DNA of 64,000 bases, from contig CM035358.1 of NCBI GenBank assembly GCA_020137815.1, forward strand, positions 6,882,001-6,946,000. The letters run 5' to 3'. This stretch comes from Hormiphora californensis. Taxonomy: Eukaryota; Animalia; Ctenophora. Made by a program: the position numbers and the translations under genes. Shown here piece after piece: positions 190 to 53,607 of this stretch (positions are counted from its first letter, which is position 1; each line of letters opens with the position of its first letter). The notes below the pieces were generated by a model. It saw only the letters and a list, made by a program, of their open reading frames with translations, did no database searches and was not told the DNA's origin.

Positions 190-3100
190 GCGCACCCACC
201 GGGTGCGCCTCAATGTAAGAGGTTTTGACAACCCCCCCGGGGGGGGCACCTTGGTCCCCAATTTTGGGAAGAAAAACCCAAAATGGTCACCCAATCCCTT
301 AAGGGCCCGGGCCCCGGGGTTGGGCCTCTTTTTTTCCCCCCCAAAACCCCAAATTTTTTGGGGCCAGGCCTGTTTGGGAAAATTTGCTCCCCTTTTTCCC
401 CACTAAACTGCCTTGTTTTATAAAAAGGAACTCCCGGGTTGGGAAGGGGGTTACCCCCGGGGGTTGAAAACCCAAAAAAAACCTAGGAAAAATTTGGGAC
501 AAATGCCAAGGCGGTAACGGAACGCCCCCCGGGGGTAAAAGAGGATTTTTGGGCCATGGAATTCCCCCCACTTAAACTTTTGTTTTTTTGGGGCCCAAAC
601 CCTTTAAAAAAAGGACAATTGTCCCCCAAAATCCCCAAAAACTCGGGCCAAAAAGGTTTTTTATACCTAAAAGGGAACCCGGGGGCCAGGTTGGAAGGGG
701 GTTTTACCCAATTGGGAACGGGAAACCAAGAAAAACCCAATTGGTCAATAGAACTACCTTAACCCCCCAAAAAAGGGACTTCAATTTTTTCCCTCCCCAA
801 AAGGAAAATTTTTAAAAGAGATTTTAATTTTGGGACCATCCGGGATTTTAAAAAATTCCAATCCCCCTCAGGTTGAGGGAAATTGGAAACAAACCAAAAT
901 TCCGGCTGGGAGGACCTTTTTCCTTTAATCACTTTCCAAGTGGGGAAAAGCCCCCAGGGGAAAAACCGTTGGAGGGGGGGGGTTTCCCAAAAACGGGAAG
1001 ACTCGGGCTTTTTTGGGGGGTTACGGACCGGGGCCCCTTTAAATTTTCTACCAAATTGGCCGGGGCCCCGCCCCCTGAAAAAAATTTTTTTCCCCGAAAC
1101 GGTTGGGGGAAGTGGGAAGGGAAAATTTGATAAAATTGGGGCCTAAACAAAAATTTTTGGTTCCGGGGCCAAACCCCTTGGGGGGGAGAAACGGCCAAAT
1201 TTGGGCCCCGGGGGGGCCCCCTTCGGGTTACTGTTTCGCCCCCATAAATGGAAAAACGGTGGGGAGACGTTTGAGGAGGCCCGGAGGAAATTAGATTTTA
1301 GGTTCCAAACCCGGGAAGCCGGGACTTTTCAAAAGGAGGGGGTTAACGGCTAAAAAAAAGCTTTGGATTTACATTGGGGCGAATAAAGAACAAAAAATAA
1401 AGGAGGGTGGGATAACTGGGAAAACCCGGTTTTGGGGTTAAAAAGGGACGGGGCCAGGACGGGCCCCCGGAAGAGGGAAATTCCCCGGTTCGCCCCAAGG
1501 AACAATTTTCCTTAAAAGAAGGGAAAAACGCGGAAAGACCCCGGGTGGGGTTCGGTAAAAAATTTCCCTGTCCTTTAAACACCCAAAAGGAAAAGGAAAA
1601 AAACCCCGGGAAAAGGGAAGGGGGCGAAAGGGGGAAAAAAAACAAAAAGAAAAAAGGCCCCCGGGAAATAAAGAAAAAGGGGGATAAAGGGACATTTGTT
1701 GCAAAATTTTCCCCGGGGAAAAAACAAGGGAAAGCCTTCCCAACTTCAAAGGGGGAACCCTTCCCCCAAAAAGAAAAATTTTTCCGGAAAAAGGAAAAGG
1801 GGCCAACCCAAAACCAACCCCCCAAAACCCTTTTTTGCCAAAAATCCCTTCCCCCAGAAAACAAAAATGTAAACCCCCCCCCCATCCAAATCCCAAATAA
1901 AAAACCCCTTTTTAAATTTAAACTGGGGAAAAAATTTCCCAACCTTAAATTAAAAAAACCCCCAAAGAAAAATGGGAAACCCAAAATGGGTTAGTAGCAG
2001 GTTTTTAAAGCCCATCCCCCGGGAAAAAACCCCCGGAAAAAAGAAATAAAAAAAGGAAAGGGGTTCCCCGGGGGCGGGATTTTAAAAACGAGGGCCCCTT
2101 TACGGGAAAAAAAGGAAAATTTAAGAGGTCGAAAAGAGCGGTTTTTAAGGGGAAAAGGGCCCCTTTTAAAAGTAAATAAATTGGGAAAACCTGAGATTTT
2201 AAAGCGATGGATTTTTGAGGGACATTTTTTCTTCCCTTTTTGCAAGGGATGCTTTGGAGGGAAAAGGGGGAAAACCCTTTACATTTGGATTTCTGAAAAT
2301 TTTGGTTCCCGTCCCAAAAAAGGGGTTTTGACCTTATTTCCCCCCGGGAAATTACAGGGGGGATTGCAAAAAACCTGAATTTGGGAAAAATATAAAAACC
2401 CGGCATAAATTCTCACCGGATTCGGCCTTTACATTGATCAGTCCTTCTTGATTCTCAAAAACGGTTTTAGGGGGGGAAAGGGACCCCCCAAAACTAAGCC
2501 AAAACTTTCCCCCCCTCAGAAACCCTTTTTTAAAGGGGTGCTATCCCAAAAACATCTTCCCCCGGGGAAAGGTTTATAAAAATTTGTTAAGGCTTTTGAT
2601 TTATTTTTTCAAAAAAACCGGATATTAAGGGTTCTCAGGGCCTTTTTGGTACCCGGGAAAGTCGTTGCCCAAAAACCCAAATTGGGGTATAGTAAACTAG
2701 AGCACAGGGGGCTAAACCCCGGAGGGGCCAAAAACAGACATTTTTGAAATATTGGGCCGGGGGGGGTTGCAGGGGGGGACACAAGCCCCCCTACCGGGAA
2801 AAAAATTTTTTTTTGGGGGGGCTCGGTTTTACTTTATGCAAAACAGCACGGAGGGCACCCTGTTTATTGGTTTTAAACTAAAACCTTTTGCCCGAAGTAG
2901 AAAAGAAAATGTGAAAGGGAAAAGGAAAACTGCCCAAGTTTTTGCATAAGGGGCTCTTCTTGCTGTTTTTTCGGGGGGGGATTTTGGGGGGGTTTTTTTT
3001 AATGCCGGGAGGGGGGAGAGCGCCTGTAAAGGAGGTAGGGCTTGAGAAAAAATCGAGCTAAGCCCGGAAAAAAGGGTCGGGGGAATTTCCCGGGGCCCGG

Positions 3101-6030
3101 GGTTTACTCCCCCACATTTATCGCCCGGAAACCCTTATCAAACTCCCCAAAAGGACTTTAAATTTGGGCTCTTGGATAAGGGGAACTCAAAGGGGGGACA
3201 CAAGGTTGGGAAGGGGGCAAAGGGCCCGGGAATGCATGTCAGGGGCTCAGGAACACGGGAAGTCAAAACCCCCAGAGACGAGATCAAAGCTAGACTTTTT
3301 GTAGAAAAAGTTGAAAACGGCCCCCCGTATGGTTTCCCCAAAAACCCGGGGAAGTTTAAAAAGGAAGGAGGCGGAGGCTAAGGAAACCCGGGCCCAAACC
3401 AGAATGCTGAGGAGGGCCACAAATAAAAACCCACCCCCTTTCCAGATGAAAAACCCCAAACATTGTAGGGTATGGGGAAAACCTCCCTATTCTAGCACCA
3501 AGATCGCTAAAGGGAACTCAGTCCCCGGGCCCCGCTTGCACGTCATCCGGAAACTAACGCTAACAAAGTTTTTCTTTGGGAGCCTCCCCCAACGGACACT
3601 CCAGACGGGGGGGCGCCCCCAAAAAAACCCCTTTGGGGTTTTTACGGGGGCGAGACAGGGACTGGGAAAACCTCCAAAACCCTTCCCTTTGATGGCTAAA
3701 TCTGTGGAAGAGTGGAGAAATTTTTACCATGGATTTCCCGGAAATACCACCCGTGGAATCCGCCAAAGGGCAAGTAATTTAATAAAGTTTTTTAGGGGAA
3801 CTGATTTACAAAAGGTCTTTGAAAAAAAAAACCATAAACTCCCAAAAGTGTGAAAAATTTACAGCTTTTTCATATAAAGTGCTTTATAAAGGGGGCAGAC
3901 TGTCGTTTAAAAACCCGTTTAAACAAAACGTCGAAGGGCCACCACAAGGGTTCATCCCCAAACTTAAAACAGAGATCTTATTCAAAAAAGGGGCTTATTG
4001 CTGGGGATTTTTGGGCATTTAAAAATTGTAAAAGATTTGGATTTCCCAAATCATGGGTGGCAGTGATTTGGGGGAACATAGGGAAAATTACCTTTAAAAA
4101 AATTTAAAATTGTGTTAAATGTCAATTTAAAAGGGAAAAAAAATTTTTTAAAAAAAAAATAAAAAAAGGGGTTTTTTTTAAAATTAAAGGGGTTTTTTTT
4201 TAAAACCAAATTTTAAAAAATTTTTTTTTCCCCCCCTTTTTTTTCCCCCCCCCCCTTTTTAAAAGGGGCCCCTTTTTTAAAAACCCCCCCTTTTTTTTTT
4301 TTTTTGCTAAAACCCCTTTTTTTTTTTTTCCCCCCCCCCCCTCCCCCCCGACCCCCCCCAAAAAAGGGGAAAAAAAAAAATTTAAAAACCCCCCTTTCCA
4401 AATTTTTTTTCCCAAAACCCCCCCCCCCCCCCCCCCCCTCCCCCCCCTCCCCCCCCCCCCCCCCCTCTCCCCCCCCTTTCCCCCCTTCCCCTTCCCCTCC
4501 CCCCCCAAAACCCCCAAAAAAATTCCCCCCCCCTTTTTCCCCCCCCCCAAAAGGTAAAAAGGGCCCCCCAAACCCCAAATTTTTTAAAAAAAAAAAAAAA
4601 TTGGGGGAAAAAAAAAACCCCCCCAAAAAAAAAGGGAAAAAAAAAAATAAACCCCCCCCTTTTTCCCCCCCCCCCCCCCAAAAGGGGGGGGAAAAAAACA
4701 CCCAAAAAAAAAGGTTTTCCAAAAAAAATTTTTCCCCCCCCCCCCCCCCCCCGCCCCCCCCCCCCCCCTTTTTTTTTTTTTTTTTTCTTTTTTCCCCTCC
4801 TCTCTCCTCTCCCCTCTCCCCCTTCTCCCCCCCCCCCCCCCCCCAAATTTTAAAAAAACCCCCCCTTTCTCCCTTTTTTTTCCTTTTTTTTTGGGGGGGG
4901 GGCCGGGGCCCCCCCTTTTTTGGGTTTTTTTTTTGGGGGGGGGTTTTTTTTTTTTTTGGGGCCCCCGGGGGGGGGGGGGGGAAAAAAAAAAGGGTTTTTT
5001 TCCCTTTTTCCCCTTTTGGGGGGGGGGTTTTCCCCCCTTTTTCCCCCTTTTTTCCCCCCCCCCCTTTTTTTTTTTTTTTTTTTTGGGGGGGGGGGGGGGG
5101 GGGGAAAAAAAAAAAAAAAAAGGGGGGGGGGGGGGGCCCCCCTTTTTTTTTTTTTCCCCCCCTTTCCCCCTTTTTTTTTTTTTTCCAAAACCCCCCTTTT
5201 TTTCCCCCTTTCCCCCTTTTTTTAAAAAAAATTTTTTTTTTCCCCCCCTTTTTTTTAAAAAATTTAATTTTTTTTTTGGGAAAAAAAAAAATTTCCCCCC
5301 TTTTGGGCCCCCCGGCCCAAAAAAAAAATTTGCCTTTTTCCCCCCCCCCCTTCCCCCCCCCTTTTTTCCCCCCCCCTTTCCCCCCCCCCCCCCCCCAAAA
5401 CCCCCCCCAAAAACCCCCCCCCCCCAAAAAACCCCCCCCCCCCCCCCCCCAAAAACCCCCCCCCCCCCCCCCCCCTTTTTTTTTTTTTAAAAAAACCCCC
5501 CCCCCACCCTTTCCCCCCCCCCCCCCCAACCCCAATTTGGGGGGGGGTTTTTTGGTTTTGGGGTTTTGGGGGTTTTTTTTTTTTTTTTTTTGGGGGGGGG
5601 TTTTTTTTTTTTTTGGGGGGAAATTTTTTGGGGGGGGTTTTTTTTTTTTTTGTGGGTTTTTTTTTTATTTTTTTGGGGTTTTTTTTTTTTGGGGTTTTTT
5701 TTTTTTTGGGGGTTTTTTTTGGGGTGGTTTGGGTTTTTTTGGGGGGTTTTTTGGGGGGGGGGTTTTTTTTGGGGGGTTTTTTTTGGTTTTGGGGGGGGGT
5801 TTTTTTGGGGGTTTGGGGGGTTTTGGGGGGGGGTTTTTTTGGGGGTTTTTTTGGGTTTTTTTTGGGGGGTTTTTTTTTTTTTGGGGGTTTGGGGGTTTTT
5901 GGGGGGGGGTTTTTTTGGGGTTGTGTTTTTTGGGGGGGTTTTTTTTTTTGGGTTGGGGGTTTTTTTTTGGGGGGGGTTTTTTCAAAACCCCGGGCCAAAA
6001 AGGGATTTTATTCCCCCTTAAAAAATTTTA
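190..6030. other. Homopolymer-degraded, low-quality sequence (probable base-calling/assembly artefact)
   Basis: Abrupt switch at ~190-230 to sequence dominated by A/C/G/T runs, becoming almost pure runs at 4100-6000. Normal complexity returns at ~6030. All ORFs here are K/P/G/F low-complexity. Confidence 0.85.
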
Positions 6031-12171: not shown

Positions 12172-12685
12172 TAGTGGGAGACACTAGCGTGGTACACGCA
12201 AAAAAATGTGCGCCACCCCAATTTCGTTTTTCAAAAAACACGCAAGAAAAGGTTTTTCAAGATCGACTTTTCACGTTTTGGCTCATAACTCCTGTTCCTG
12301 ATAAGATAAAGACTTCAAACCTTCGCCATTCGATGGGGCTTGAAATTCCCTTTCCAACGGTATGCAAACGATTTCTGTAGCTCATCAGGAACCGGAGATA
12401 TGATCAATTATGATAATAACCGCGTAAGTTTCCTTCGGCATTATCATAATTGATCATATCTCCGGTTCCTGATGAGCTACAGAAATCGTTTGCATACCGT
12501 TGGAAAGGGAATTTCAAGTCCCATCGAATGGCGAAGGTTTGAAGTCTTTATCTTATCAGGAAAAGAAGTTATGAGCCAAAACGTGAAAAGTCGATGTTGA
12601 AAAACTTTTTCTTGCGTGTTTTTTTAAAAACGAAATTGGGGTGGCGCACATTTTTTTGCACGTACCACGCTAGTGTCTCCCACTA
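12172..12685. mobile_element. Palindromic MITE, Academ-like (TAG..CTA termini, 3-bp TSD CTA)
   Basis: ~250-bp arms TAGTGGGAGACACTAGCG../..CGCTAGTGTCTCCCACTA with a tiny loop. CTA on both flanks. Superfamily inferred from termini and TSD only. Confidence 0.8.
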
Positions 12686-13966
12686 CTACTACTTGACGGG
12701 TTGATATGATGACGATATATATCATACAGTGCTATTATCAAATAATTTACTGTTTCTCTTACACAAAACACCTTGTTTTGAACTTGTTTCTACCGGTCGG
12801 GATTGAAATCTGTCAGGCCAATGCTCTGACAGGACCCCATGTGAGCGCCAGATATCTGGCGAGACAGATTACAATTGGAGGAAACTAGAAGTAGAGGGGA
12901 GAATCACACGTCACTTTTGTACACGTGGTTCAACGGATACGTGTGATCACACTTCTGCAGCTGGTACCAGTACCATGGTAACAGAGAAACTCTCTCTCTC
13001 TCTGTTACCTTGGCAACAGATAGTGCATCATAACCAAAACCATTACCATGTACTGTATAGTGCCCAAAAACATGTGTACTGTGGTTGATGGGGGCTGGGG
13101 ACAAGTCATACCCTCGCTTTGCTAACATGTGTTCAGGGACAGCTGTGCTGATTTGCTGTTAGGCCAACGCTCTGACAGCACCCAAGTCTGTCTGGCGGCC
13201 CCAGACCCCGTTTCCATTCCTAGATTGGGTTGGCCCCGCCAGACAGATTCCACCCTGTCTGGCGGGGCATGGCTATTGCCATAATTTCACCCAATGCCCG
13301 ACCCAGCTTTACTAGAAGCCCCCTGGAGGGTCAAGTTCCCATTTCTCTCCCATCATCAATGGCCATTTCCCCATGATGGGGAGGGCCTCAAGAGAAGGGT
13401 TGGTGATTCACCTACCCTTTCTTTAGTTGAGTTATTTCTCTCGTTTTTGGTTTCTCTTTGGAGGAAACGGGGAATAAAAGAGCAAACTTAGAGTTGCGTA
13501 TCTCACTTGGTTACGAAACAACCCCTTCGCGGCAAGAAACGGGTAACTTGGTTATCAAGTATATCTGACTATCTCAGATCACAGCCGGGGATACAATTAT
13601 TGTTCCAGACCATCCATAATATCTCTGGATATCCCTCCTCCTCCTCTCTGGCATAAATAGTGCAATCACAGCGGGGTAGAAGAAAGGGAGCCATATCAAG
13701 AGGGAGAGAGATATAATAGCTGCAAGGGGGGCTTGCAGGTGCTAGCTTTTTTCACCACCACATCACATGTATATCTCGAGCGCTGCCCCCCATTTGGTGT
13801 TAATTTTAGCCTCCCCTTGTTTAACCAAGCTACCACACTAACGTTAGATCACGTGGAATCTGTGCACCGCTATTTTAGATTAGACTGTGGTCCCCCCATA
13901 CTGCACTTGCACCTTCTCACTGCAGCTCTCTTATATCTGCACACTCTCATAGATTCAACCTATCAC

Positions 13967-14015
<49 letters not shown>

Positions 14016-14477
14016 TCTCTCTTTCATAATTATCTTTTAGATCACTTCCGGCTAGAGATCTCAAGAGCACACCCGCTGCAGCCCCTTATCATCTGCCATT
14101 TCAATTCAATGCTGTATCTGTTTCGCTTGTTAACACACTCTCGAGCTCTGATTCACGCTATCGAAACATTTTCTCAACTTATTTCAGTTTGTATGTGATA
14201 TTATCTAGTTTGTATCTGACCCTAGCCTTCAATGAATCCTATTCAGCTTCAAAAAGTTAAATGTTGGAGCTGAATGAGGGTAGGGTACAAGCTAGACAAC
14301 CGGGTTTGGTTATTTGGATGGCTATAAACTAAAGTATAAAATTATAGTTGTATCTCATTTTGAATTCCTTGACAACTTGACCTACAGACCGATTCTAATC
14401 CAGTACTAATGCCTTTCCCCCTCTTCTCTAGCTAAGCACACGCTACACTAGCTCTCTCACCCACCCAAACACACAAC

Positions 14478-17408
14478 ATGGGTCATAAAGGAAGGTCTAA
14501 GCGTGGACACCGTCACAGCTCCGGAGGTGGAGGCGCCAACATGATGATGGCAGGAGGCAGCGGAGGTATGATGATGTCCGGTGGAGGTATGATGTCCTCA
14601 GGTGGATTTGAAACTCTCAACATGGATCAGATGAACATTGTGGAGGGTGGATCTAGTGGATTTATCGGTTTCCCCTCCGCTGGTATTGTCTCCGGTAACG
14701 GTATGTACAGCGTAACCCTTGCTGATGGTAACTGTGTTGAGATAGACGAGAGCTGCATCAAACAGAGCAGGAGAAGCGCCACCAAGTTCAGCTGTATGAT
14801 TGATGGAGTGAAACACAAGATCAAGTCCCACCAGCTCGCCCCCTGTGTGGCCACCTACTCCCAATCCGAGGTGGTGACTGATGGAGATGTCCTCAGAGTC
14901 CGATCTGCCACTCCCGCTGCTGCTGACGGTGCCATTGAGTACATCCACCAAGTGAGTTCATCTGCAGTCAGCCGTCCCTCCCCCATCTCCTTCTACCCCT
15001 ACTACAAGATCAAGATTGGTGACTCTGTCAAGGTCCTCCCTTACCATATCGTTAGCGCTGGCAAGGCTTCCCGCCGGTTCTTCCGATTCAGGTATGACGG
15101 TAAGACAATCACCATTCGAAAGTCTCACATCAGGCCAGTTACCAAGCATTACAAGGTTATCCTGGATGGACGAGTCACTGAGATTGGGTGTCACAACATC
15201 CAGCCCTATGGTGATAACGCCTATCTGATCACCCATAATGGTGTCGAGAGGATTGTGGGTGCCGCATCTGTCCACTCCGGTGTCCAGGATGGTGCTGAGT
15301 TGATTACTGACGATGAGTCCAGTGAGGTCCAGAGGAAGCCCCTGTTTGTGAGTGCCAAGAGACACAGCTCTCACGTCCAAGAGGATACCGAGACTGGCAG
15401 GAGGTTCGGGCTCATCAAGAGATACACCAAGACAAAGAGAGGCAAGAGGGTGAGGAAGGTGCCAAGGAGGAAGAGCAAGGGAAAGAAGGATATCAAGATT
15501 TACGATGTCAGCTTCTGTCTGTGTTACCAGATCATTCTGAACGGAGCCCACATTGTCATCCCCCAGCATAGGATCAAACAGTCCAAGAGGCACAGTGGGT
15601 ACATGAGATTCCGATATAACAAGATGGTCTACTACATCACGCCCCAGACCATTACCCAGGCATTCTATGCCCCTGTGGTGGGATACTACAGCGTCGTTCT
15701 GGATGAGAAGGTTGTGGTTGTCAGTGGTCGAGAGATGGAGAAGCACTCTGAGAAGGATGATATCTACATCATCCGGGTTAACGGTGAGAGCTACGAGATT
15801 CACGCAACTGCTATCACCTTCCTCGGTGAGTTTGTCCTCGAGCCCGATAGAGAGATGCTGACTGATGAGGGAGAGAGCACCCCAGTGTCCTCTGAAGAGT
15901 CAGATACCTCCGACTCTGATGCGTCTGTATCTGGTCGAGATGAGATCGTTGAGGATGCCAACGTGTACACAACCCGCACCTTCAAGATCCGTAAGAAGAC
16001 CATCGCCACCTGTTACAGGATCCGACTGAATGGCTCGGAGCTCGTTGTACCCGTCTCCCAGGTCAGCCAGTGCAAGACCCGCCCTGGCATGCTCAGAATC
16101 AGCTACTATAACAAGACCTACTTCATCAATACTGATGATATCGAGCTGCAGTATGAGACCGAGGTGACAGGATTCTACTCTGTCACTGTTAACGGTAACC
16201 CTGTTATCCTCACTGGTGATGACATTGATGAGAATACTAGCGATGGAACTTACATCTGCTACTACAAGAACTCCAGGTATGTCCTGGCACAAACCCAGAT
16301 CATGTACCTGGGAGATTACCCTGTGATCCAGGCACCCAACTACATGGAGACTGAGGTTGAGAGCAGCGAGGAGAGTGACTGTGCCACTCATCCTGACGAG
16401 GAATTCTCCGAGGAGGAGCCCCAGATGTGCATCTTTGTGAACGAGAAGCCAAATATGGACATGACCCTCCCTGAACCTACCCAGGGATCTGTGATGGGAT
16501 GGAAGGTATACATTGATGGTCGGTTCTATACCGTGCCCGCTAACAGGCTGAAGCAGCTGAGGAACGCTCCTGGGTTCATGGAGATCATCGTGAACAGGAA
16601 GTTGTACCACGTCTCCATCGAGAACATCCAGCCCATCATGCTGCCTACTGTCTACTTCATCACTATCCAGAACAAGCCCATCCTGGTACCTGCCAAGGAT
16701 GTCCGTCGTCATCCCACTGAGGAGGGATACGTGATTGTGAAGTACCGAGGCCAGGACTACGTGATCGCTGTCTCTGAGTTGAAGTTGGCTGATGGAAGTA
16801 GTGTGAACTGGGATGATATCCCTATGGACCACGAGTACCTCATCACCAGGACTACCAAGACTACCAGGAGAATCAGGAAGAAGAAGAGGAGTGGTAGGGA
16901 CTACATGAGGACTTGTTCTCCTCTCTGTGACAAGGTCCGTGCCGCTGGACAGTCCGATGATGATGCTGCCAGTAACATTAACGCCGATAACTTTGCGGCC
17001 ATGGCTCAGATCGCTGGAGCTTCCTCTAACTTCTCTCTCGGAGGTGCCACTCATGTGGTCGCCCCAGGAGGTGTTGTCATGGGACAGGGAGGATTTGGAC
17101 ACCATCTTAGTGTCCGACCTGCCTCCGGTGCTGGGCTAGTTAACATTGGAGCTAGTTACGGATATGGCGGTGGTATCGCCATGAGCTCTAGTCATGGTGG
17201 TGGACATGGAGGTTCCAGTCATGGACATGGAGGATCCAGTCATGGTCATGGAGGAGGTCACGGCCACTCTTCTGGTCACGGTGGACATGCCCAAACGAGC
17301 CCCAGGGGAGGACAGCAGATGATGAGCATGGGAGGTCTCAATGTGAGTCCTAAGAAGAGTAGCCGACACAGGAAGGGGTCTTCTTCTTCTAGCAGCAGCA
17401 GCAACTAG
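14478..17408 (+). CDS. Uncharacterised intronless 976-aa protein with nine ~47-aa beta-rich repeats and Gly/Ser/His/Met-rich ends
   Basis: 2.9-kb uninterrupted ORF with strong codon bias and ACAACATGG start context. Pyrimidine-rich acceptor (cttctctag) at ~14431. AT-rich 3' flank. No family recognised. Confidence 0.9.
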   Translation: MGHKGRSKRGHRHSSGGGGANMMMAGGSGGMMMSGGGMMSSGGFETLNMDQMNIVEGGSSGFIGFPSAGIVSGNGMYSVTLADGNCVEIDESCIKQSRRSATKFSCMIDGVKHKIKSHQLAPCVATYSQSEVVTDGDVLRVRSATPAAADGAIEYIHQVSSSAVSRPSPISFYPYYKIKIGDSVKVLPYHIVSAGKASRRFFRFRYDGKTITIRKSHIRPVTKHYKVILDGRVTEIGCHNIQPYGDNAYLITHNGVERIVGAASVHSGVQDGAELITDDESSEVQRKPLFVSAKRHSSHVQEDTETGRRFGLIKRYTKTKRGKRVRKVPRRKSKGKKDIKIYDVSFCLCYQIILNGAHIVIPQHRIKQSKRHSGYMRFRYNKMVYYITPQTITQAFYAPVVGYYSVVLDEKVVVVSGREMEKHSEKDDIYIIRVNGESYEIHATAITFLGEFVLEPDREMLTDEGESTPVSSEESDTSDSDASVSGRDEIVEDANVYTTRTFKIRKKTIATCYRIRLNGSELVVPVSQVSQCKTRPGMLRISYYNKTYFINTDDIELQYETEVTGFYSVTVNGNPVILTGDDIDENTSDGTYICYYKNSRYVLAQTQIMYLGDYPVIQAPNYMETEVESSEESDCATHPDEEFSEEEPQMCIFVNEKPNMDMTLPEPTQGSVMGWKVYIDGRFYTVPANRLKQLRNAPGFMEIIVNRKLYHVSIENIQPIMLPTVYFITIQNKPILVPAKDVRRHPTEEGYVIVKYRGQDYVIAVSELKLADGSSVNWDDIPMDHEYLITRTTKTTRRIRKKKRSGRDYMRTCSPLCDKVRAAGQSDDDAASNINADNFAAMAQIAGASSNFSLGGATHVVAPGGVVMGQGGFGHHLSVRPASGAGLVNIGASYGYGGGIAMSSSHGGGHGGSSHGHGGSSHGHGGGHGHSSGHGGHAQTSPRGGQQMMSMGGLNVSPKKSSRHRKGSSSSSSSSN

Positions 17409-18128
17409 ACGATGACGTCATAATGTGACGTCATGTTGTCATGGTGATTGTGTTGCTATGGTAACAATCACTATGGAACATGATAAATTAAGGGACTATA
17501 ATAATAACTGTCTAGCGGGACTACATATGTGAAAAACGGAACAAAAAATGAACTGGGATATTATGATATTTTGTAGATAAACAACATTGTGTATATTTTT
17601 GTGTGTATGTTCGTGTGTATGTGTGATATAAATGAGAGATGCATCTTCATTTTCTGTTAAATTTTTGAGTTTTTCTTCCGAAACTAATACATATTACATA
17701 CAATCATACATGATGGCATCTCTGGAATCTGGACCATATTCATATCTGGGTTGAGATTTTAAGGGTCTACCATTCAACCACTTTTTACTGAGTGAAGCCT
17801 TCACAGTTACCATCTATTCTTCCCGATTGATCTCCCACTGTCAATATCATGACTATGGTCCAAGATCACGGTCATTCTCTCTGAGTCAGAGTCTGACTAA
17901 CCAGTAACCACCACCAGTAACCACCACCAGTAACCACCACCGCTAACCACCACCAGTAACCACCAGTAACCACCAGTAACCACCACTACTGAGTAATACA
18001 ATGGTACAAGATCCCGATCATATTCTCTAGCTGACTAACTACCACTACCAACTACCAACAAGTCCATTATTATAACGACGGTCTGGCTACCTGAGTTACC
18101 CCCTACCGAGCGGAGAGAGAGAGAGAGA

Positions 18129-18188
<60 letters not shown>

Positions 18189-18193
18189 AAGGC

Positions 18194-18256
<63 letters not shown>

Positions 18257-18794
18257 GAGAAAGAGAGAAAGAGAAAGAGAGAGAGAGAGAGTCTCCCTCC
18301 CTTGTTAATCCGATGGATTAGGTACGCACGTTGAGAGCCACGGTTGTCATGGCAACAGAACCACCAAAGAGAGAACACTAATCAAGCAACCCTTCTACTC
18401 GAGAGGACTGACCATGCATTCATCTCTTTTATAAAAAAGATCGGGGTATGAACAAAAACCATAGAGATTGTTTGAACTCAGCCGATAGGCAGGTCCTTAT
18501 CAGGAATAGACCAATAACAACTGAGAACTCTCAGGCCTCAGCATCAAAGATTGTTTACGGGAGTGCGCTCAGGAATAGAAGAAGGATACTGTTAGCGCGA
18601 TGCCTGACAGAATAAGCTGCAGATATGCCTCCTGAAGGTTGTTGCCCTTCAAATGATATTACATTCAATTCAAGAAGCTGCTGGGGTTTAGGTTAACTCT
18701 TGTTTTATTAAAGAGTTAGAAACAAATAAATTGAGATACAAATTGTAACAAATATATTAATTAACACAGAGTAGAAATAACACAAATATCGTAT

Positions 18795-22512
<3,718 letters not shown>

Positions 22513-24320: not shown

Positions 24321-27073
24321 ATGGGGACCGCTAGTTTAATGATTGCACTTGTCCTAGTAGTTTTGCTTCAACTCGCGGACCAAACGTAGGTTTTTCGTGC
24401 TTGTTATGTTTCGTGTACATTTTAGTACATTCTCTGCTTGTCGATATTGTTCATTCAGCTCTAAGCTGTGATTCTATACATCTAAATGACACCCTGAATC
24501 ACCGCTAAATTATCCCTAAATCACCACTCAATAATCCCTAAATCACCACTCAATAATCCCTAAATCATTCAGTGAATGACACCCTCTAATGACACCCTAT
24601 AATGACACCCTCTATTATGACACCCCCTTATAGTGACACCCTCTAATGACACCCTCTTCCTATCTCAGGGACCTTTATTGTCGAGGTGTAAGTGAAACAG
24701 GAGAACAGCTCGAAGCTAGATGCAGTTACCCAAGTTATAAGTGCTCCTGTATCAACAGTGCCAGTGACCCGCCCGTTTGTCATTGCACTCGAATAGTCAG
24801 GTTGGTCGTCATTGGCTTCCTTTGCTTGTGATTAGGGCTCCAATATATCAACCCCCTGGCCTAGAACCCTATTTTTTTCTCCCACCCCCGACCCGCTAAA
24901 CAGTAACCTTCCTTATTCTCAAGCCAGTCCTTTCCTACCCTCAAAGTCAAGACCTTTGTGCGTAATCCGCTCCTCAACCCACCCCACCCTCGCAGTGAAG
25001 AGGAAGAAGAGGAAGAAGAGGAAGACGTAACAAAACCTTCAAACACGGAAACTAAACAACAAACAGTTAACGGCTGGAATCCCCTTCATGTGTTAGGAGT
25101 TGGGTGTTCTATTTTAATGGTTCTCATCCTAACTTCAACTGCATGCTGCTGCCTCTGTAGACAGGTAGGGGGATCAGGGGGTTGTTGAGTAACAAAAAAG
25201 AGAGCCAGGTTCTATCCCTCCTTTGCATTTGGCATGGAGAGGGGATCGGGACTGTTGGTTGGTAACGGTGATCTTCACGGTTACCCTTTAGTCATGGCTC
25301 CGTGATAGGCATATAAGGTACTTTGTGGCCCACTGGGGTCTCCTAGAAAGATGGTGATAGTGGGTGCCACAATGCTCGTCTACAATTACTAGTGAAACCA
25401 ATTTGGTATAGGTCTCCACTCTCCAATCTTTATTGACTAAGTCTCTCTCAGACTGGATATAAATTGATTGGCTATTTTCTATCATGGTTCAACAATTACC
25501 AGATAGCCCTCGCTCTCGATATGACTTGCTTTCTCTCTCTTTCTCCCCTTCTTTTTAGCTCTCCCTCTCTTTCCCTCAGTCTCAGTCCTCCCTCTGCCCC
25601 AGACTCCTCCATGGGAGGGTGGGAGGGTAGTTTTTGCCGTCAGATACCCTGGCACTAATTGTAGGTCCGGTGATTGGGCACTTTAAATTACTCCTATATT
25701 AATTTTAGTTCAGCCCTGATTCTCCCAAGTCCCAACACCGTCTATCTAATCCAAGAATTATAAGGGGTGTGGTTTGTTTGACTGTACGTACTGTCTCCGC
25801 GATAACTTACGAGCAGTTCAAGTGGTCTGGCGACTGGCGTTGCCAGATCCCGTTTTGATTCTCGACACTGGGCTGATTAGATCGGGTCGGCACCGCCAGA
25901 CAGAATCACACAATGTGGTACAAACTCTCGGAACTAACCCCCAATTCTACATTTCAGTACTACTCTCGCCAGATGTCATTCATCAAGCCGCCAGACTACT
26001 CCGACTCCCCACCACCTCCCTACCCTGCCACACCCAGCGTGCCAACTCGGACAGCTGTTATCTCCAGAGGATCTTCATCCAGGGATATAAGGAGTGCTGC
26101 TTCTCGGGACTTGTTCAGCCGGGAACCTACTACTGCACATGTTATTAGTCATAATATAGCCATACGAGAGGCACCTAGAGACAGTGTGACTAGAGATCTG
26201 GTGGGTTCTCGAGATAGTTTTAGAGGGGCAGCACCTGGATGCCAGGACTCAATCAGATGCCAGAGGGCATCAATACAGACGATGAGGGAGATACCTTTAC
26301 AGCATAGATCAGACCTGAGACAGATGAATAGAGACGCTAGCAACGCACCTAGAGACCATAGCAACGCGCCTAGCAACAGGGTGCCTAGCAACGCCGCACT
26401 TGTTAGAAATGGCGTAACAAACAATCCGAGAGAATCTGTAAATATGAGTCCTAGAAGTAGGGAGTCAATAGTTGTTAGAAACTCTGTTGTAGACAATACC
26501 CTATCTGAAAGGGCCAGCGATTTAGATCAGAGAGAAAATGCCAGTTCTTCAAGAAACACTATGGTAGAGAGAAACTTTGGAAGTTCAGTAGTTGAAGCAG
26601 GAATTAACCGTATAGGTTCGTTCACTGCCCCTACCACCACTAGATCAGTGCCCCGGGACATTGAAACTACACCCGATGGCACCTATAATCCCCGCATGAA
26701 CACGGGGATAACACGGGGACTACGGGAGATATCATCAGCTGATATCAATAGACCTTCCTTTTTGGTGGGACGAAACAATACCTCCCCGGGCACGGATAGC
26801 AATGGACCTTCTCCCTTGTCAAGTCGTGGCGAGATAGAAAACACAGAGGAAGACCGGCCGGAGACTGTTAATCAGGATCAGATCACAACATCTGGCCCAG
26901 TACCTGATATCGTCCTGCCTTCATACAGACAGGGAGTTAGGGAGGTCCCACCGGCCGAGGTGGCTAGACCTGGACCGTCCCTTTTTAGTCGACCAGGACG
27001 TGGCGAGAACAATGCAGCTATCATGCTACCGACATATGGTCAGGGACTGGATCTGATAATTGAAGATACGTGA
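24321..27073 (+). CDS. Single-pass membrane protein, Shisa/WBP1/VOPP1-like architecture (six-Cys ectodomain, TM-CCC, PPxY tail)
   Basis: Four in-phase exons: signal peptide MGTASLMIALVLVVLLQLA (24321-~24385); Cys domain C..C..CSC..CHC (~24669-24800); acidic linker plus TM followed by CCCLC (~24996-25164); cytoplasmic exon from 25958 (branch-like ACTAAC at 25933) with PPDY, PPPY, LPSY and LPTY. Confidence 0.78.
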
Positions 27074-46360: not shown

Positions 46361-47579
46361 CTGTACAAGGGTGGTTAGTATGGTGACATATATAGGGGGG
46401 GGTGCAGCTGTAACTTCTGACAACATCGCACACACCTGTACAAGGGGGGGGGGGTTACTATGGTGACATTTGGTGACTTTTAGTGTCACCTATACAAGGG
46501 GGATTGGACTGGAAACTTTAGACGTAGACGGGTATAACAGGAAGGGGGAGGCGGCCTTTTTAGGCAGGTGAGAAGAAGCCCGACCGGTTAAGGGACCCTT
46601 TAAGGGAGCCTTTTAAGGACCCTAGAAAGTTAAGGGACCCTTTAAGGGACCCTAGAAAGTTAAGGGACCCTAATCCTTGGTGCCAAATTAAAAGTTTGGT
46701 GAAAAGATGACGTCTCTATCAATTAAAGAGAAACAACGATTTTGCAGTTTGTGTTATGAAGGAACAAACATTATTCCAAATAACATTCTTACATTCAGAC
46801 ACATTCTTACATTCAGACACAATGTCTGACACACCCCTGCGACACATTATATTACACACATTTTTGGCATAAATGATAATTAATACGGCAACAATACAAT
46901 AATCACAATCAAGCAGTCCTCTTAGCAACGCGGCGAGGAATGACTCTGCCCTGCTCCACCAGTTCCTTCAGTTTTGCCTCGTTGTCTGGCTCCTCTAATA
47001 TAGCACAGCAGGTGGACTCCATGTTGTTCAGTGTTGCAGAGGGAAGGAAGACAGCTTCAAATCTCTGAGGGTCCACTTTCTGTAGTTCAGCGATAAACCG
47101 GATTCTCCGAAACTGAGTCTTGCTCACTGATGCCTCCTCCATTGCCGCGGTGAGGTTAACTCCTTTCTGGTAGAGGTTGTTTATCTTGTTGTACTGCTCC
47201 ACCAACTCCTCGGATTTTTTAGTTCTTCTCCTTTTTCTGGAAGGCTCCTCTGCGATAGCGGTGTTGGACTCCTCTGGGACAGAAGGGGTAGGCTCTGGGA
47301 CAGAAGGTATAGGCTCCTCTGCATCTGGGATGGCGGTGGTAGGCTCCTCTGCATCTGGGATGGCGGTGGTAGGCTCCTCTGCATCTGGGATGGCGGTGGT
47401 ACTGGTAGGCTCCTCTGCATCTGGGATGGCGGTGGTAGGCGGGGGGGGGGGGGGTTCCAACCTATTTTTTTGTATTTTTTTGTATGTTTTTGTACGGGCC
47501 ATACAAAAAAATATCCAAAATTCTTGTTTTTTTCCGTACAAAAAAATACAAAAAAATACAAAAAATACAAAATATTTAA

Positions 47580-48140: not shown

Positions 48141-49467
48141 ACGGGTGATAACTAAAAGATGTCACAAAATTAAAACGGCTGTAGATCAGCCGGTATTGGG
48201 TATGGGAAAATAATATTGATAACATAGATAGCTCTAACGGTTAGCTTCATGATGATAATGGAAAATCTATCATACTACCACATCTCTTCCTGTAATGCCA
48301 GACAACCAACAGCTAGTTCGAGACCGGGTTGTCCGGTTTTACCAACGTGTCTTACCAGGGAATAGACATGCTAAGAGGGACACTGTAAGGCACTTCGAAG
48401 CCGAGGGTGAGCACAGAAAGACTATCTATAGAATAATTAATACCTTTATCACCCGGGGTAGCACTGAGAGGAAGATAGGCTCCGGTAGGAAGGCCAGGAT
48501 TATGACCCCTTATCAATGCCGCCGATTGAAGAGGTTAGTGGACCACCGCACTGGGGTTTCACAGCGCCGTCTCGCCGTCAAATTTGGGTGCACCCAGCCG
48601 TACATCTCCAAGGCCATCAAGAAACTTGGAATTGCTTGTAGAAAGAGGTCTAAGGTACCTTTTTACCGGAGTGCAACAGCGATGAGCATCGCCCAGAGAG
48701 CCTGCAGGAGATTGCACGACAAGTGGAGACTGGTGGACTTTATCATCGATGATGAGAAGTATTTCGGACTCAGCGGGTACCAGATGAGTGGCAATCGGTC
48801 CTTCTACACCTCAGACATCACTGCCACCCCTGATTCAGTCGCAACATTTGGTAAACAGAAGTTTGAACCCAAGGTTCTTCTGTGGATTGCCATTTCACGC
48901 AAGGGGATTTCCAAGCCTGTTCTGATATCTGGGCGGGGGATGGCGATTGACAAGCACAAGTACGTGAACAGCTGCCTCAAGCCCGGTCTCCTCCCCTTCA
49001 TCAGGAAGCACTACCCCAACGGTGGGTACGTCTTTTGGCCCGATAAGGCAAGTGCCCATTATGCAGATCACACACTCTCTTTTCTGAGGAGAAAGAAGAT
49101 AGACTTTGTGCAGAAGGACGACAACCCTACAAGTGTGCCACAGTGCAGACCCATCGAAGACTTCTTCGGACTGTTGGCGACACGAGTGTACCAGGGAAAC
49201 TGGGTTGCTAGGGACGTGGAGGAGCTCAAGAGGCGGATAAGAAGATGCCTGAAAGACATCCCTCAACCAACCGTACAAGCGGCTATGGACACTGTTAAGA
49301 GGAAGCTACTGAGAGCCTACAGGAGAGGACTTCTTTCCGTTTGTCATTGATGTTTTTTGTTCAAAATTGTCTGAAAAATCGTTGTATCACTGGCGCGAAG
49401 GTCTATCTCGAAAGGGAAAAAATCTACAGCCGTTTTAATTTTGTGACATCTTTTAGTTATCACCCGT
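48141..49467 (+). mobile_element. Full-length ITmD37E (DD37E) Tc1/mariner transposon
   Basis: Perfect 46-bp TIRs (ACGGGTGATAACTAAAAGATGTCAC..), TA TSD and an intact transposase ORF. Confidence 0.95.
48295..49350 (+). CDS. DD37E transposase, 351 aa
   Basis: N-terminal HTH with GSGRK linker. Catalytic motifs IDDEKYF, FWPDKASAHYA and PQCRPIEDFF, with 37 residues between the second D and E (counted). Confidence 0.95.
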   Translation: MPDNQQLVRDRVVRFYQRVLPGNRHAKRDTVRHFEAEGEHRKTIYRIINTFITRGSTERKIGSGRKARIMTPYQCRRLKRLVDHRTGVSQRRLAVKFGCTQPYISKAIKKLGIACRKRSKVPFYRSATAMSIAQRACRRLHDKWRLVDFIIDDEKYFGLSGYQMSGNRSFYTSDITATPDSVATFGKQKFEPKVLLWIAISRKGISKPVLISGRGMAIDKHKYVNSCLKPGLLPFIRKHYPNGGYVFWPDKASAHYADHTLSFLRRKKIDFVQKDDNPTSVPQCRPIEDFFGLLATRVYQGNWVARDVEELKRRIRRCLKDIPQPTVQAAMDTVKRKLLRAYRRGLLSVCH

Positions 49468-49509: not shown

Positions 49510-50382
49510 AGCAAACATGATTGATTCAGATAACGATTCGAGAAAATTTTCTCGGTTAGAAGTTATGATTCGAGAAACTTTCTCGGTAAGAAATTGTCAT
49601 TAGAGATAACTTTCTCCCTAAGAAATTGCGATTCGAGAAAACTTTCTCGCTAAAAAATTGCGATAAGAGAAAAATTTTCGCTAAGAAGTTGTGATTCGAA
49701 AAATTTTCTCTCCTAGAAATATCGATTCAAGAAAAATTTTTCTGTAAGAAATTGCGATTCGGGAAAATTTCTCTCGCTTAGAAATTGCGATTTGGAAAAA
49801 TTTTCTCGCTTTGAAATGTCGATTCGAGAAAATTTTCTTGGTTCGAAATTACGATTCGAGAAAATTCTCTCGGTAAGAAATTGCGATTCGGAAAAATTTT
49901 CTCGCTTAGAAATGTCGATTCGAGAAAAATTTCTTGGTTCCAAATTACGATTCGAGAAAATTTTCTCGGTAAGAAATTGCGATTCGAAAAAATTTTCTCG
50001 CTTAGAAATGTCGATTCGAGAAAAATTTCTTGGTTCGAAATTACGATTCGAGAAAATTTTCTCGGTAAGAAATTACGATTCGGGAAAATTTTCTCGCTTA
50101 GAAATGTCGATTCAAGAAAAATTTCTTGGTTCGAAATTACGATTCGAGAAAATTTTCTCGGTAAGAAATTACGATTCGGGAAAATTTTCTCGCTTACAAA
50201 TTTCGATTCGAGAAAAATTTCTTGGTTCCAAATTACGATTCGAGAAAATTTTCTCGGTAAGAAATTACGATTCGGGAAAATTTTCTAGTTTACAAATTTC
50301 GATTCGAGAAAAATTTCTTGGTTCGAAATTACGATTCGAGAAAGTTTTCTCGGTAAGAAATTGCGATTCGAGAAAGTTTTCT
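49510..50382. repeat. 32-bp minisatellite with 96-bp higher-order periodicity
   Basis: Unit ~TTACGATTCGAGAAAATTTTCTCGGTAAGAAA. The array resumes at 54160-54180 after the inserted element. Confidence 0.92.
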
Positions 50383-51382
50383 GGCAGGTCGGTAGAACTT
50401 CGACAGAATTTAGGGCAGGTCTGAATTTAGGGCAGGTCTGAATTTAGGGCAGGTCTGAATTTAGGGCAGGTCTGAATTTAGGGCAGGTCTGAATTTAGGG
50501 CAGGTCAATTTAGGGCAGGTCTGAGTACTAAGCATGTGAATGCGATTCGGGGAAGCTTATTAGCGGTGTGAGACGATAAGAGATATGGAACATGATTCGG
50601 GGAAGCCAATCAGGAGTGTTAGACGATATGAGACACGATTCGGTGAAGGTTTCTATCGCTTTCCATCCCTAGACCCTATACCCCTCTCTGGAACATGATT
50701 CGGGGAAGCCAATCAGGAGTGTTAGACGATGGATATGAGATACGATTCGTGGAAGGTTTCTATCGCTTTCCATCCCTATATAAGCCATTGGTTAGATAGC
50801 AACATGGGACAGCCCTACCTTTGTAGACTGTACCCATGGGGTACTGGCGGTATACAAGCGTTAATATTATTATTATTATTATTATTATTATCCCCCTCTC
50901 TGTTCGCTATGTCTCTCTTTCTTTCTCTTTCTTTCTCTTTCCTTTTCTATGACGGGAGAAAGAGAGACATGGAGAAAGAGAGATACCCTTAACTTGCGCT
51001 GCCCCTCCCCCCTCTCTCTCTAGCTCTCCCCGATCTTATTCAGCCGATCGGCGCCAAGCTGCCGGCTGCCCCTTTCCTACTCGGAACAAGTATTTCTACT
51101 GTAAGATTTTCACGGTAGGAACATATCTCTCAAAAGCCCCATTCTATGGAAGAAAATAATGATTTCACCGACTAAACTAATCTTTGAGTAAAGATAAACC
51201 CGAGCAAAAATAGGCAATAGCACTCGCTTGATCTTTGCGTTTTTTCCACAGACTTCATACGATTATTAAATCTTGTATTACTTTGTAATCAGCTCCAGAA
51301 TCTTGATCCTGTCGAGCGCTTTACCAGAAATCCCTTTACAAGCAAAGACTTCATACATATATTTAAAAAAAAGATAATATTG

Positions 51383-53524
51383 GGGGGTGGCGGCCAACAT
51401 CGGCCTGAATATAAATAGTGTAGACACTTAACAATGATAAAAACTGTAATAAATTAAACATAAAATGAGTCTATTACCCCACTTGATATAGCTGCTCGCC
51501 CCTGTTGCCCTCGCCCCTCAATCTACCCCGATGCCCCCTGATGGAAACAGTTATTGATCGCACCATGGCGAAAGATAGTCTGAGTCGAAGATAACGGATG
51601 CATTGGTCGTAGGTGTATCCCGTTTTCTTAGCTTTCTTATCGGCTAGCTGTTTCAGTGTCTTTTTGAATTCTCGACCGAGACCCCCCGTCGTGGACATTA
51701 CCAGAGGTGTAAATGAAGATTTTTCTACTTCAATGACCCGATGAAGGTAGCCAGTCTTTTTCTCCCTCTCATGTTTTTCATACACTTTACAGATTGCCTG
51801 GTTAGAGTTAGATGCCACCCTAGGATTAAATACCCTCACATCAAAATAGGTGTTATCCATGCTAGACCAGAAATCACGTGTACTGATATCTAGGCGAGCT
51901 CCATCCGCCGTAATAGTTCCCTCTGGGAGACTCATTCCTCGTACATTTAGCAGATGGGGTTCAACTTTCGTGTCGTGACACACATTACTGAACTCACTTG
52001 CGATAAAGTCTCTCACGTTGTTGTGGCGAAAGCATACAAAACCGCCGATCTTACATGAAATTGAGTGATCGATACTATTTTCCTCTCCACACACGCAGTT
52101 GGTAGGCAGTGCTTCTCCTGTCAGCGGCAAGTTGTAACGTGCAGACAGAGCATCATGCCACTCTTGTCTGTTCAATGTAAAGTTCAGTGCTTGGAGGGGA
52201 AGACAAGTAAGCCAAGAAGATGCACCTTTCTCAGACAGGAGATCAAGGTTCCTTCTTTCGGCGCTAGTCATTTTGCTTCGAATCTCCTCAATTTTCTGAT
52301 GATGAATGTCATTTTTGGTACGGCGAATAATTGATGATTTCTCAGTTTGTTGGTTTTTGTCAACCTGAAATGTTTCGTGTTGGCCAAGAACCGCTGCAGA
52401 CAAGTCTTCTGTGATGAACTTAGAAAAGCTGTACTCCGAATCCGCTGATAGTTCTGGGTTATCAATTCCCAATCCTCCAAATCTAACAGGGAGGGATGCA
52501 ACTGATCTCAAGGTGTCGCTGATAACATGTTGGCCAGTTAGTACAGGAAGAAGTTTTTGGTGGATGGTTTTCTCGATGACTCCAAGTTTTTGGGATATTC
52601 CTGGAGTTGTTCTCATGAGGTAGCTCCACCTTTTCGAGATCCCGATGGTGTATGCACTATAGGCTATCTGTGGTTCGTTTACTGCAATTTCACAGAGTTG
52701 ACTGATTTCCTCGTTCCATTTTGCAACCTCGTTCTGAACAAATTCCCTCTGGCTCTCCTCTGTTCCGATGTATGATCCTAGGTAGCGTTGGCCGTCTGTA
52801 GTGATGTTGACGTCCGTGAACATTTCCCTTGCAGTTTCTTCGTATTGGGGTTTCACAATTAGCCACGATTTTCCGGGGTTAGGGAGGTATCCGTAGCCCG
52901 GTCCGTCACTCTTTATTTTTTCCCACCATGATTTTACTGACGAAAGTTTGCCTCCACCCAGGCCATCATCGGCATAGAATATTTGAGTGAGAGAGGAGTC
53001 CTTTAGGGAGCGAATGAGGGGCATGAGGCAACAAGCGTACATTGGCATAGCAGCAGTGTCTCCCTGGGTTGTACCCTCGGCTGATTTCATAGTCTCATGG
53101 GTCATGCCATCGCATAGGAAGAGATCAGCTGTTAGTCCGTACGTATTTTTCAAATATAATTCGAATTCAGGGCAAGTATAGTTAATATTATTCAAAGCTG
53201 ACACACGATTTAACGAATTGAATGCATTACTAGCATCTACAAGCAAAATACATTCACAATTTTCACTCTCAAATAAATCTCTTGCTGCGTGAACAGCAGC
53301 CTCCACACCGCTTTCGAGTCCTGCACACAGTTGAATTGGTGCTGTGCATTCAATAATGTCCGGTTTGAGGGCTCGAGTGATAACTTTGCCCACCAATCGT
53401 CTGAGTATTTCACCAATCCCGATCGGTCTAATACCAGTTGGCTTCTTGCTCAGTGGAACTAGCCGGGAGGCCACATAGGATGTAATATGTTTCGGGTCGA
53501 TTGGTTCTGTAGCTATCTTAACAG
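51383..53524 (-). mobile_element. 5'-truncated CRE-clade non-LTR retrotransposon (RT, CCHC finger, restriction-like endonuclease), 15-bp TSD
   Basis: Stop-free ORF to 51474 with IRPIGIGEILRRL, DASNAFN, GTTQGD, YADD, CVCG..H...C, RHN, RLD..FDV and EKK motifs. TSD AAAAAGATAATATTG at 51368-51382 and 53525-53539. Confidence 0.9.
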
Positions 53525-53552
53525 AAAAAGATAATATTGAAATATTTTGGTC

Positions 53553-53607
53553 GGCAGGGTGGTGTAGTGGCCAGTACACTCGCCTCCCATGCATTAGGTC
53601 CAGGGTT
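53553..53607 (+). ncRNA. tRNA-Gly(CCC)-like fragment (SINE head or pseudo-tRNA), truncated at the B box
   Basis: GGCAGGG TG GTGTAGTGG (A box) ..CTCGC CTCCCAT GC.. AGGTC CAGGG TT. The anticodon stem is mismatched, so this is not a functional tRNA. Confidence 0.6.

Follow-up and report, generated by a model that had tools for sequence, protein, structure and literature searches.

What kind of protein is encoded by an intronless, 976-codon gene of the ctenophore Hormiphora californensis that matches no named family? Ctenophores branched off very early among animals, and their lineage-specific proteins are mostly uncharacterised. The gene lies at 14478-17408 on the plus strand of the window, a stretch of 64,000 nucleotides (assembly GCA_020137815.1, contig CM035358.1, positions 6,882,001 to 6,946,000 of the forward strand) within which all coordinates below are counted. 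An original prediction, made from the sequence alone, described the product as an orphan built from nine copies of a beta-rich module and rated it the best new-system candidate in the window. It is not a new kind of system, the fold being already known; what is new is the family, which is undescribed and highly constrained. The modules are predicted to fold as SH3/Tudor-like small beta-barrels, the internal history of the protein can be traced, and a named Mnemiopsis relative offers a model. As to function, charge and motifs favour a nuclear, multivalent nucleic-acid-binding scaffold regulated by acidic linkers, a reading to which a probability of about 0.4 is given.

Modules, pairs and halves

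Nine modules begin where the original prediction had placed them (nucleotides 14703, 15000, 15147, 15522, 15684, 16011, 16173, 16497 and 16650). They align significantly with one another: in a leave-one-out comparison by hidden Markov model (HMM), eight of the nine score above all 2000 of their own shuffles; for module 1, 2 of the 2000 score higher. The four tight pairs proposed for modules 2-9 are borne out, with pair-versus-pair z values of 3.7-29.8 in all six comparisons. A module tree (44 rows, 52 columns, long branches) separates class A (modules 2, 4, 6 and 8) from class B (modules 3, 5, 7 and 9, plus module 1) with support 99/98, and this split implies a history in which there was first a module, then an A-B pair and then four pairs. 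The proposed repeat of about 47 amino acids is thus right as to the nine modules, but the real repeating unit is the A-B pair of about 105 amino acids, composed of two distinct classes.

Each module had also been proposed to consist of two similar halves, which holds at the profile level and in the predicted secondary structure but is weak in single sequences. As profiles the halves align with an hhalign probability of 93.8 and a score of 24.7, the maximum in 200 column shuffles being 10.9. When single sequences are compared, only three of the nine second halves do well, in that at most 13 of 300 shuffles outscore them. Because column shuffling destroys strand periodicity, the half-profile test does not separate descent from shared hairpin geometry. 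According to the available text of a paper on small barrels (10.1101/140376), these folds have a two-fold geometric symmetry that may be a mere by-product of barrel closure. Halves that still align in sequence make the protein a test case for the proto-domain duplication of small barrels.

Conservation is uneven along the protein. Module 8 is identical in all seven full-length sequences and modules 4 and 9 are near-invariant, while the tails are 21-54% identical. That a 51-residue module stays unchanged while the sequences as a whole share only about 80% identity suggests an essential interaction under tight constraint. The gene and its parts, all on the plus strand, are as follows, with the main support in brackets.

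14395-14431, plus: splice-acceptor-like site (branch-like TAAC/TAAT, pyrimidine tract, AG), 46 nucleotides before the ATG (pattern match)
14478-17408, plus: intronless coding sequence, 976 amino acids, about 107 kDa, pI 8.9 (open reading frame list, RNA contigs, variants)
14478-14702, plus: basic start and Gly/Met/Ser-rich low-complexity N-terminus, amino acids 1-75, predicted disordered (model; 21-23% identity to homologs)
14703-14846, plus: module 1, a lone barrel and the most divergent module, 31-62% identical to homologs (HMM, tree, fold rows)
15000-15287, plus: pair A, module 2 (net charge +11) and module 3 (-1) (pair alignment, fold rows, charge)
15288-15521, plus: linker 2, an acidic TDDE site followed by a long Lys/Arg-rich stretch resembling a nuclear localization signal (NLS) (motif and charge count)
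15522-15833, plus: pair B, module 4 (+7; 96-98% conserved) and module 5 (-5) (predicted local distance difference test (pLDDT) 92 in the model, charge)
15834-16010, plus: linker 3, acidic and Ser/Thr-rich with CK2-type sites, 81-93% conserved though predicted disordered (motifs, model)
16011-16322, plus: pair C, module 6 (0) and module 7 (-4) (pair alignment, fold rows, charge)
16323-16496, plus: linker 4, strongly acidic (-12 to -15) with CK2-type sites, 66-88% conserved (charge, motifs)
16497-16802, plus: pair D, module 8 (+4; identical in 7 of 7) and module 9 (+1; 90-94%) (alignment, fold rows, charge)
16803-17405, plus: C-terminal region with a short basic stretch, a Ser-Pro site, a Gly/Ser/His-rich tail and a basic-plus-poly-Ser end (sequence)
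17409-17642, plus: 3' untranslated region to the limit of the RNA contigs (RNA contigs)

Predicted fold of the modules

The full-length model is poor (pLDDT 43.6; predicted template-modelling score, pTM, 0.24), yet all nine modules share one strand pattern in it, and linkers and tails come out disordered. For pair B, modelled with all pairs aligned in 17 rows, pLDDT is 92 and pTM 0.68. Each of its modules runs as hairpin, 3-10 turn, strand, loop, hairpin, 3-10 turn and strand, with a single long strand continuing from module 4 into module 5. The model shows the arrangement of an SH3-like barrel, namely five antiparallel strands, a split beta2 and a 3-10 turn between beta4 and beta5. A conserved Gly is expected at the beta2 bend of such barrels (10.1101/140376, available text); it is found in three of the nine modules and a 3-10 turn is predicted there instead.

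In a search of 48,161 chains the best rows for the pair were the PHF19 Tudor domain (Z 5.2, root-mean-square deviation (rmsd) 2.4 over 50 residues) and integrase C-terminal domains (Z 5.1), followed by an IscB domain (Z 5.0) and the myosin VI SH3-like domain (Z 4.9). Four chains reached a Z of at least 5 and none a Z of 8; a second look gave the same list. Whole-module superpositions on the SH3-like class were obtained for modules 1, 2, 3, 5, 6, 7, 8 and 9 at Z 4-5.4, and within the full-length model modules 1, 2, 3, 6, 7, 8 and 9 match the same class. These matches are tied and lie below the level typical of chance-like best rows, so they support the fold class and no specific relative. With Foldseek, the pair model found no match at E 0.001 or better in the PDB and viral libraries. 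The full model gave one such match (rmsd 29), with multi-domain Agenet and Spt5 chains ranking high at E 4e-3 to 8e-3 and rmsd above 20. The pseudo-symmetric SH3/KOW/Sm-like barrel of the original prediction is thus supported at the level of the fold, by the pair model and the fold searches, but its Sm-type and classical SH3 features look absent.

Several readings of the protein build on this fold class. The STAC, Tuba and Nck2 rows in the fold lists would suit a classical signalling adaptor with several polyproline-binding SH3 domains; this is very improbable, as beta1 and beta2 are joined by a two-residue turn instead of an RT loop, Trp is present in one of the nine modules and no SH3 Pfam match is found. 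Tudor domains top the fold rows (6wau, Z 5.2-5.4), which, together with the high-ranking Agenet and Spt5 chains and the Gly/Met-rich tails, would fit a protein of several Tudor-like domains that reads methyl-arginine or methyl-lysine and holds germ granules or chromatin together, as do Drosophila Tudor, TDRD6 and plant AGDP. Tudor and other Royal readers carry an aromatic cage of three to four residues. At the seven hairpin-flanking columns where the cage would be expected, all nine modules have zero to two aromatics. Neither the whole protein nor any of the nine modules matches the Tudor, Agenet, PWWP or chromo profiles of Pfam at E values up to 10. A methyl reader is improbable.

The pairs might also join by their edge strands, in the manner of Sm/Hfq-like rings or fibres, into a lattice or granule. 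Rings of Sm, LSm and Hfq proteins assemble through beta4-beta5'. Short beta1-beta2 turns free the edge strands and favour oligomerisation of small barrels (10.1101/140376, available text), the invariance of module 8 implies a fully engaged surface, and alternating charge would allow head-to-tail contacts. Such self-assembly is nevertheless improbable: the last strand of each A module continues into its B partner in the pair model, neither model has the Sm-type N-terminal helix (no helix of at least four residues precedes any module), and the fold matches listed include no Sm or LSm protein. When pair D was modelled as a homodimer, in a prediction that did not use the alignment, the score was 0.00, which speaks neither for nor against self-assembly.

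Searches for a named family

The claim that the protein belongs to no named family holds, and no confident full-length match was obtained in Pfam, NCBIfam or PDB sequence searches. The best Pfam match of the whole protein was PCC_BT at E 0.087; ten homologs and fragments gave nothing below E 0.06 and the nine single modules nothing below E 0.05. In NCBIfam the best E value was 0.023, far below the cut-off, and PDB sequence searches gave at best E 3.6, 0.096 (an afadin fragment) and 0.1. An ESM Atlas feature search returned no usable match. Weak echoes of the acetyl/propionyl-CoA carboxylase BT domain were rejected, no such fold being among the listed rows, and a possible likeness to LytTR or SHD1 is unsupported by those rows (SHD1 cluster, template-modelling (TM) score 0.23).

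In the literature, searched mostly outside subscription papers, nothing was found that names the accession, the locus tag or two conserved peptides, though gene-identifier tables could hide the gene, and no paper on a ctenophore SH3-like orphan was found. The locus tag is absent from six supplements of PMC12221973, assuming that the gene names of that paper are NCBI tags. The available part of PMC11184263 describes 11 tissue-enriched genes without RefSeq matches, which could not be matched to the 976-amino-acid gene.

Gene, transcript and selection

The intronless open reading frame is as originally described, and an in-frame stop precedes it by 15 codons. RNA contigs tile 14487-17642 in four of four runs, two of them oligo-dT, with no joint listed, and the flanks (13368-14452 and 17708-18792) are without cover. 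Four additional runs also cover the gene, so that it is transcribed in all eight; one of these comes from a related organism with about 85-90% nucleotide identity and was not found through the gene. Contig depth over the gene was 100-205 in one run not found through it, depth being a poor measure. Neighbouring genes are uncovered in four RNA runs, but three of these had been picked through the 976-amino-acid gene, so the missing cover of the neighbours does not rank expression.

All 36 listed coding variants are synonymous third-position changes, where 22% would be expected at random; the listing covers 40 of 122 variant places, 36 of them coding. This is a real gene under purifying selection. 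A chance open reading frame, pseudogene, transposon or contaminant would be intronless and without a named family, as this gene is, but has next to no probability in view of the transcript with its empty flanks in all eight runs, the synonymous variants, an 83% identical gene on a 14.6-Mb contig of Mnemiopsis leidyi, and prokaryote, viral and phage scans without a relative. Codon use is biased (effective number of codons 42; AAG in 51 of 55 Lys codons), in a window that offers no good host-gene set for comparison. No second copy of the gene was found within the 64-kb window.

The acceptor-like site ending at 14431 may belong to an intron of the 5' untranslated region or serve as a spliced-leader acceptor. 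No GT[AG]AG[TC] donor was found in 13000-14430, the 1.4 kb before it, and the RNA contigs hold no joint there. Trans-splicing of a spliced leader in ctenophores would account for an acceptor without a donor, and was seen in no read. The neighbourhood had been called intron-rich; this is true of a minus-strand zinc-finger gene that lies in pieces, but another neighbour is a 386-amino-acid open frame.

Relatives and gene history

Six full-length relatives, 69-83% identical, were found. The one named among them is the M. leidyi hypothetical protein KAL5251076.1 (ACHWQZ_G016707), a likely ortholog with 83% identity over the module region and the same nine-module layout; its tails diverge and it is itself unannotated. 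The helicase-like product of the neighbouring M. leidyi gene G016706 (P0008) has no match in the 64-kb window, and local synteny on that side is thus not kept within it. P0008 shares a database cluster with the M. leidyi ortholog despite being unrelated to it. Two full-length copies, P0006 and P0007, are 88% identical in the core and lie on contigs of identical length; they are probably paralogs from a duplication in one lineage.

Among 1.84 billion representative sequences 15 matches were found, of which the 14 besides P0002 are fragments from clusters without a named protein. Twelve of these are 32-63% identical and end at GT-like positions, and locus L001 holds three coding segments split by GT-AG introns; its codon usage (r 0.06 over 130 codons) gives it no placement. 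Fragments of pairs C and D, and likewise two of pair B, lie on equally long contigs. In a tree of pairs the fragments fall with pairs B, C and D by position, each time on a starred branch of their own, which implies an intron-bearing sister gene that split off after the pairs had multiplied. It ends in Gly-Pro-Asp-Gly/Tyr repeats of about 30 residues instead of a Gly/Met tail (L001 1-1144; P0025, P0029, P0033 and P0047). ESM Atlas structure rows weakly hint at beta-flower repeats in this tail (TM below 0.3), and introns are present in some of the tail fragments and absent from others. No full-length form of the intron-bearing lineage was found among proteins of 575-2000 amino acids, the range searched. 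The intronless state of the 976-amino-acid gene beside such a sister suggests retroposition or wholesale intron loss.

The label of orphan stands as far as named families go, but the gene is not a species orphan, being part of a conserved family with an intron-bearing sister lineage. The family appears to be restricted to ctenophores, judging from the absence of named matches outside them. Scans with short patterns, which find close relatives only, gave no relative from viral contigs (0 of 154 candidate stretches), from prokaryote genomes (0 of 97) or from phages. It is conceivable, if unlikely, that the SH3-like fold was re-invented independently in ctenophores or their close stem, with the array as the core of a comb-jelly-specific machine. 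A peptide of about 23 residues forming a hairpin, a 3-10 turn and a strand would then have given rise to the barrel by duplication; duplication of the barrel would have produced the A-B pair, and multiplication of the pair the present four. The machine would serve chromatin or ribonucleoprotein organisation, spliced-leader processing, or comb and muscle architecture. If so, the protein would be a living case of a barrel whose two proto-domains remain alike in sequence.

Possible function

The distribution of charge along the protein is among the points that favour a nuclear nucleic-acid scaffold. Nuclear import would depend on the Lys/Arg clusters, which lie in linker 2 and at the two ends of the protein. 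The first barrel of each pair may bind the backbone of RNA or DNA largely without regard to sequence, several pairs together providing avidity, and the second barrels, neutral or acidic, would brace the first and present protein-binding faces. The acidic Ser/Thr linkers that follow the first three pairs may mimic a polyanion and fold back on the basic barrels, to a degree set by phosphorylation of the CK2 type, and the Gly-rich tails could promote condensate-like assembly.

A modules are more basic than their B partners in all four pairs, a difference kept in all seven full-length sequences and in the three distant fragments checked, and the alignment places Arg and aromatic residues of the A barrels at positions alternating with the core. 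The basic stretch of linker 2 has a net charge of +9 to +11 in all seven full-length sequences and also precedes pair B in the distant relatives P0031 and P0053. Kept in six of six homologs are a basic NLS-type motif at amino acid 320, CK2-type sites at 277, 462, 471, 472, 478, 625 and 644, an acidic Thr/Ser site after each of pairs A, B and C, and the Ser-Pro site of the C-terminal region. Basic and poly-Ser segments close all seven full-length proteins and presumably resemble the ends of nuclear-speckle proteins. Many of the best fold rows bind nucleic acid or chromatin (PHF19, the TDRD3 Tudor domain, the integrase C-terminal domain, KorB, PWWP and Spt5 KOW). In agreement with the original prediction, hydropathy gives no sign of a signal peptide or transmembrane segment (19-residue maximum 1.54, inside module 4; N-terminal maximum 0.62), no dedicated predictor having been run, and no catalytic, membrane or secretion signature was found in the 976-amino-acid sequence.

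A number of points weigh against a nuclear scaffold. Models that lack a clear match typically reach Z 7-8 and the fold Z values here are lower, the rows tie with myosin and plectin SH3-like domains, the fold library is itself rich in nuclear barrels, and the full-length model is poor (pLDDT 43.6, pTM 0.24). Module 6 is neutral, while modules 3, 5 and 7 and two linkers are acidic. The assignment of residues to the inside or outside of a barrel comes from alternation in the alignment, not from model coordinates. Basic clusters also bind tubulin tails, actin and acidic lipids. The codon bias and the contig depth of 100-205 would equally suit an abundant structural protein.

The main rival, somewhat less probable, is a structural linker, abundant in the cytoplasm of a cell type peculiar to ctenophores (comb or multiciliated cells, ciliary rootlets or giant muscle). 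In that case microtubule tails or actin would be held by the basic barrels and linkers, and filaments would be cross-linked through the spacing of the pairs. Such a linker explains the near-invariance of modules 4, 8 and 9, as in polymer-bound proteins, and the codon bias as well as a nuclear role does. The tie of the myosin N-terminal SH3-like and plectin domains in the fold search fits it too. The Gly-Pro-Asp-Gly tail of the sister gene weakly matches a filamin-domain protein (E 2e-5, likely compositional). Ctenophore-specific comb proteins, CTENO64 and CTENO189, do exist, but the available text of the comb-plate proteome study names one novel protein, of 1582 amino acids, among its 21 top candidates (10.1101/2022.03.27.486007). 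The protein has no SxIP, IQ or LC8-type motif and its NLS-like clusters are conserved; both points speak against the cytoskeletal linker.

Palindromes of 14 bp resembling the X-box of RFX stand on both sides of the gene, at 13004 and 17452, and might be taken to favour a ciliary role; they are scattered through the window, however, and so are not specific evidence for the cytoskeletal linker. Seven strict sites occur in the 64 kb (13004, 17452, 27163, 36095, 46171, 60981 and 61002) where 0.03 are expected, and 19 with one mismatch where 0.48 are expected; the site at 17452 lies in the 3' untranslated region of the 976-amino-acid gene.

Other elements in the window

An inverted repeat at 12172-12685, 1.8 kb upstream of the gene, has 246-nucleotide arms that are 97% complementary and a 22-nucleotide spacer, and is like a miniature inverted-repeat transposable element or foldback element. 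Immediately 3' of the gene lies a tandem repeat of 10-13 nucleotides (17884-17999). Exons of a C2H2 zinc-finger gene, which we take to be GLI/GLIS-like, occupy 19715-19840 and about 20200-20570 on the minus strand, convergent with the 976-amino-acid gene. The 386-amino-acid open frame at 25913-27073 (plus strand) is of low complexity, without a Pfam match, and contains several PPxY/LPxY motifs that are presumably WW-ligand-like. A 197-amino-acid frame on the minus strand at 46909-47502 repeats TTAIPDAEEP internally, and its C-terminal part is like CCDC106 (E 5e-6, below the cut-off). An intact-looking transposase frame at 48295-49350 (plus strand), presumably of the Tc1/mariner class, has helix-turn-helix matches only, and a reverse-transcriptase frame at 51474-53594 (minus strand) matches RVT_1 at E 9e-9. 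A tandem repeat at 49816-50424 can be read as a repetitive frame of 202 amino acids. The Phe/Pro/Gly/Lys-rich frames at 1343-3853 resemble low-quality or homopolymer-rich sequence, not genes.

Comparison with known systems

The closest structural class is that of the SH3-like barrels, SCOP b.34, represented by the Tudor domains of PHF19 (6wau) and TDRD3, the retroviral integrase C-terminal domain, the myosin N-terminal SH3-like domain and the KorB C-terminal domain, with which the modules share their predicted topology. Superpositions cover about 50 residues at Z 4-5.4 and rmsd 2-3, with 4-17% identity in nearly all rows and no standout. The modules differ from this class in having a 3-10 turn in place of the conserved Gly bulge and halves that are still alike in sequence, and neither an aromatic cage nor an RT loop is evident in them.

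In its layout the protein recalls Spt5, with its KOW array, AGDP3, with its Agenet array, and Drosophila Tudor. All share barrels strung like beads, some of them paired, and acidic or low-complexity regions. Unlike them, the 976-amino-acid protein has no NGN, SN or companion domain and no Pfam match to KOW, Agenet or Tudor. The place of Spt5 and AGDP3 near the top of the full-model search, at rmsd above 20, shows only that small barrels are repeated. A KOW motif has 27 residues and an invariant Gly; in the modules, seven of nine have Gly in the first turn, but the KOW profile gives no match and Spt5/NusG KOW rows reach only Z 3.8-4.2.

Among ctenophore proteins, CTENO64 and CTENO189 of the comb plate are lineage-restricted and conserved across ctenophores, as the 976-amino-acid protein appears to be; CTENO189 is described in the available text as a protein of 1582 amino acids with metalloprotease and death domains (10.1101/2022.03.27.486007). 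In the C-terminal tandem SH3-like domain of KIN17 the N- and C-terminal tails pair with the linker between the barrels, and many RNA-binding and scaffold proteins contain small barrels in tandem (10.1101/140376, available text). The pair model likewise predicts extended strands, which span the linker and occur at either end, although KIN17 is not among the listed fold rows and has no sequence match. The protein is like Spt5, AGDP3, Tudor and KIN17 in layout, and the predicted fold is the one mark of membership that it shares with them.

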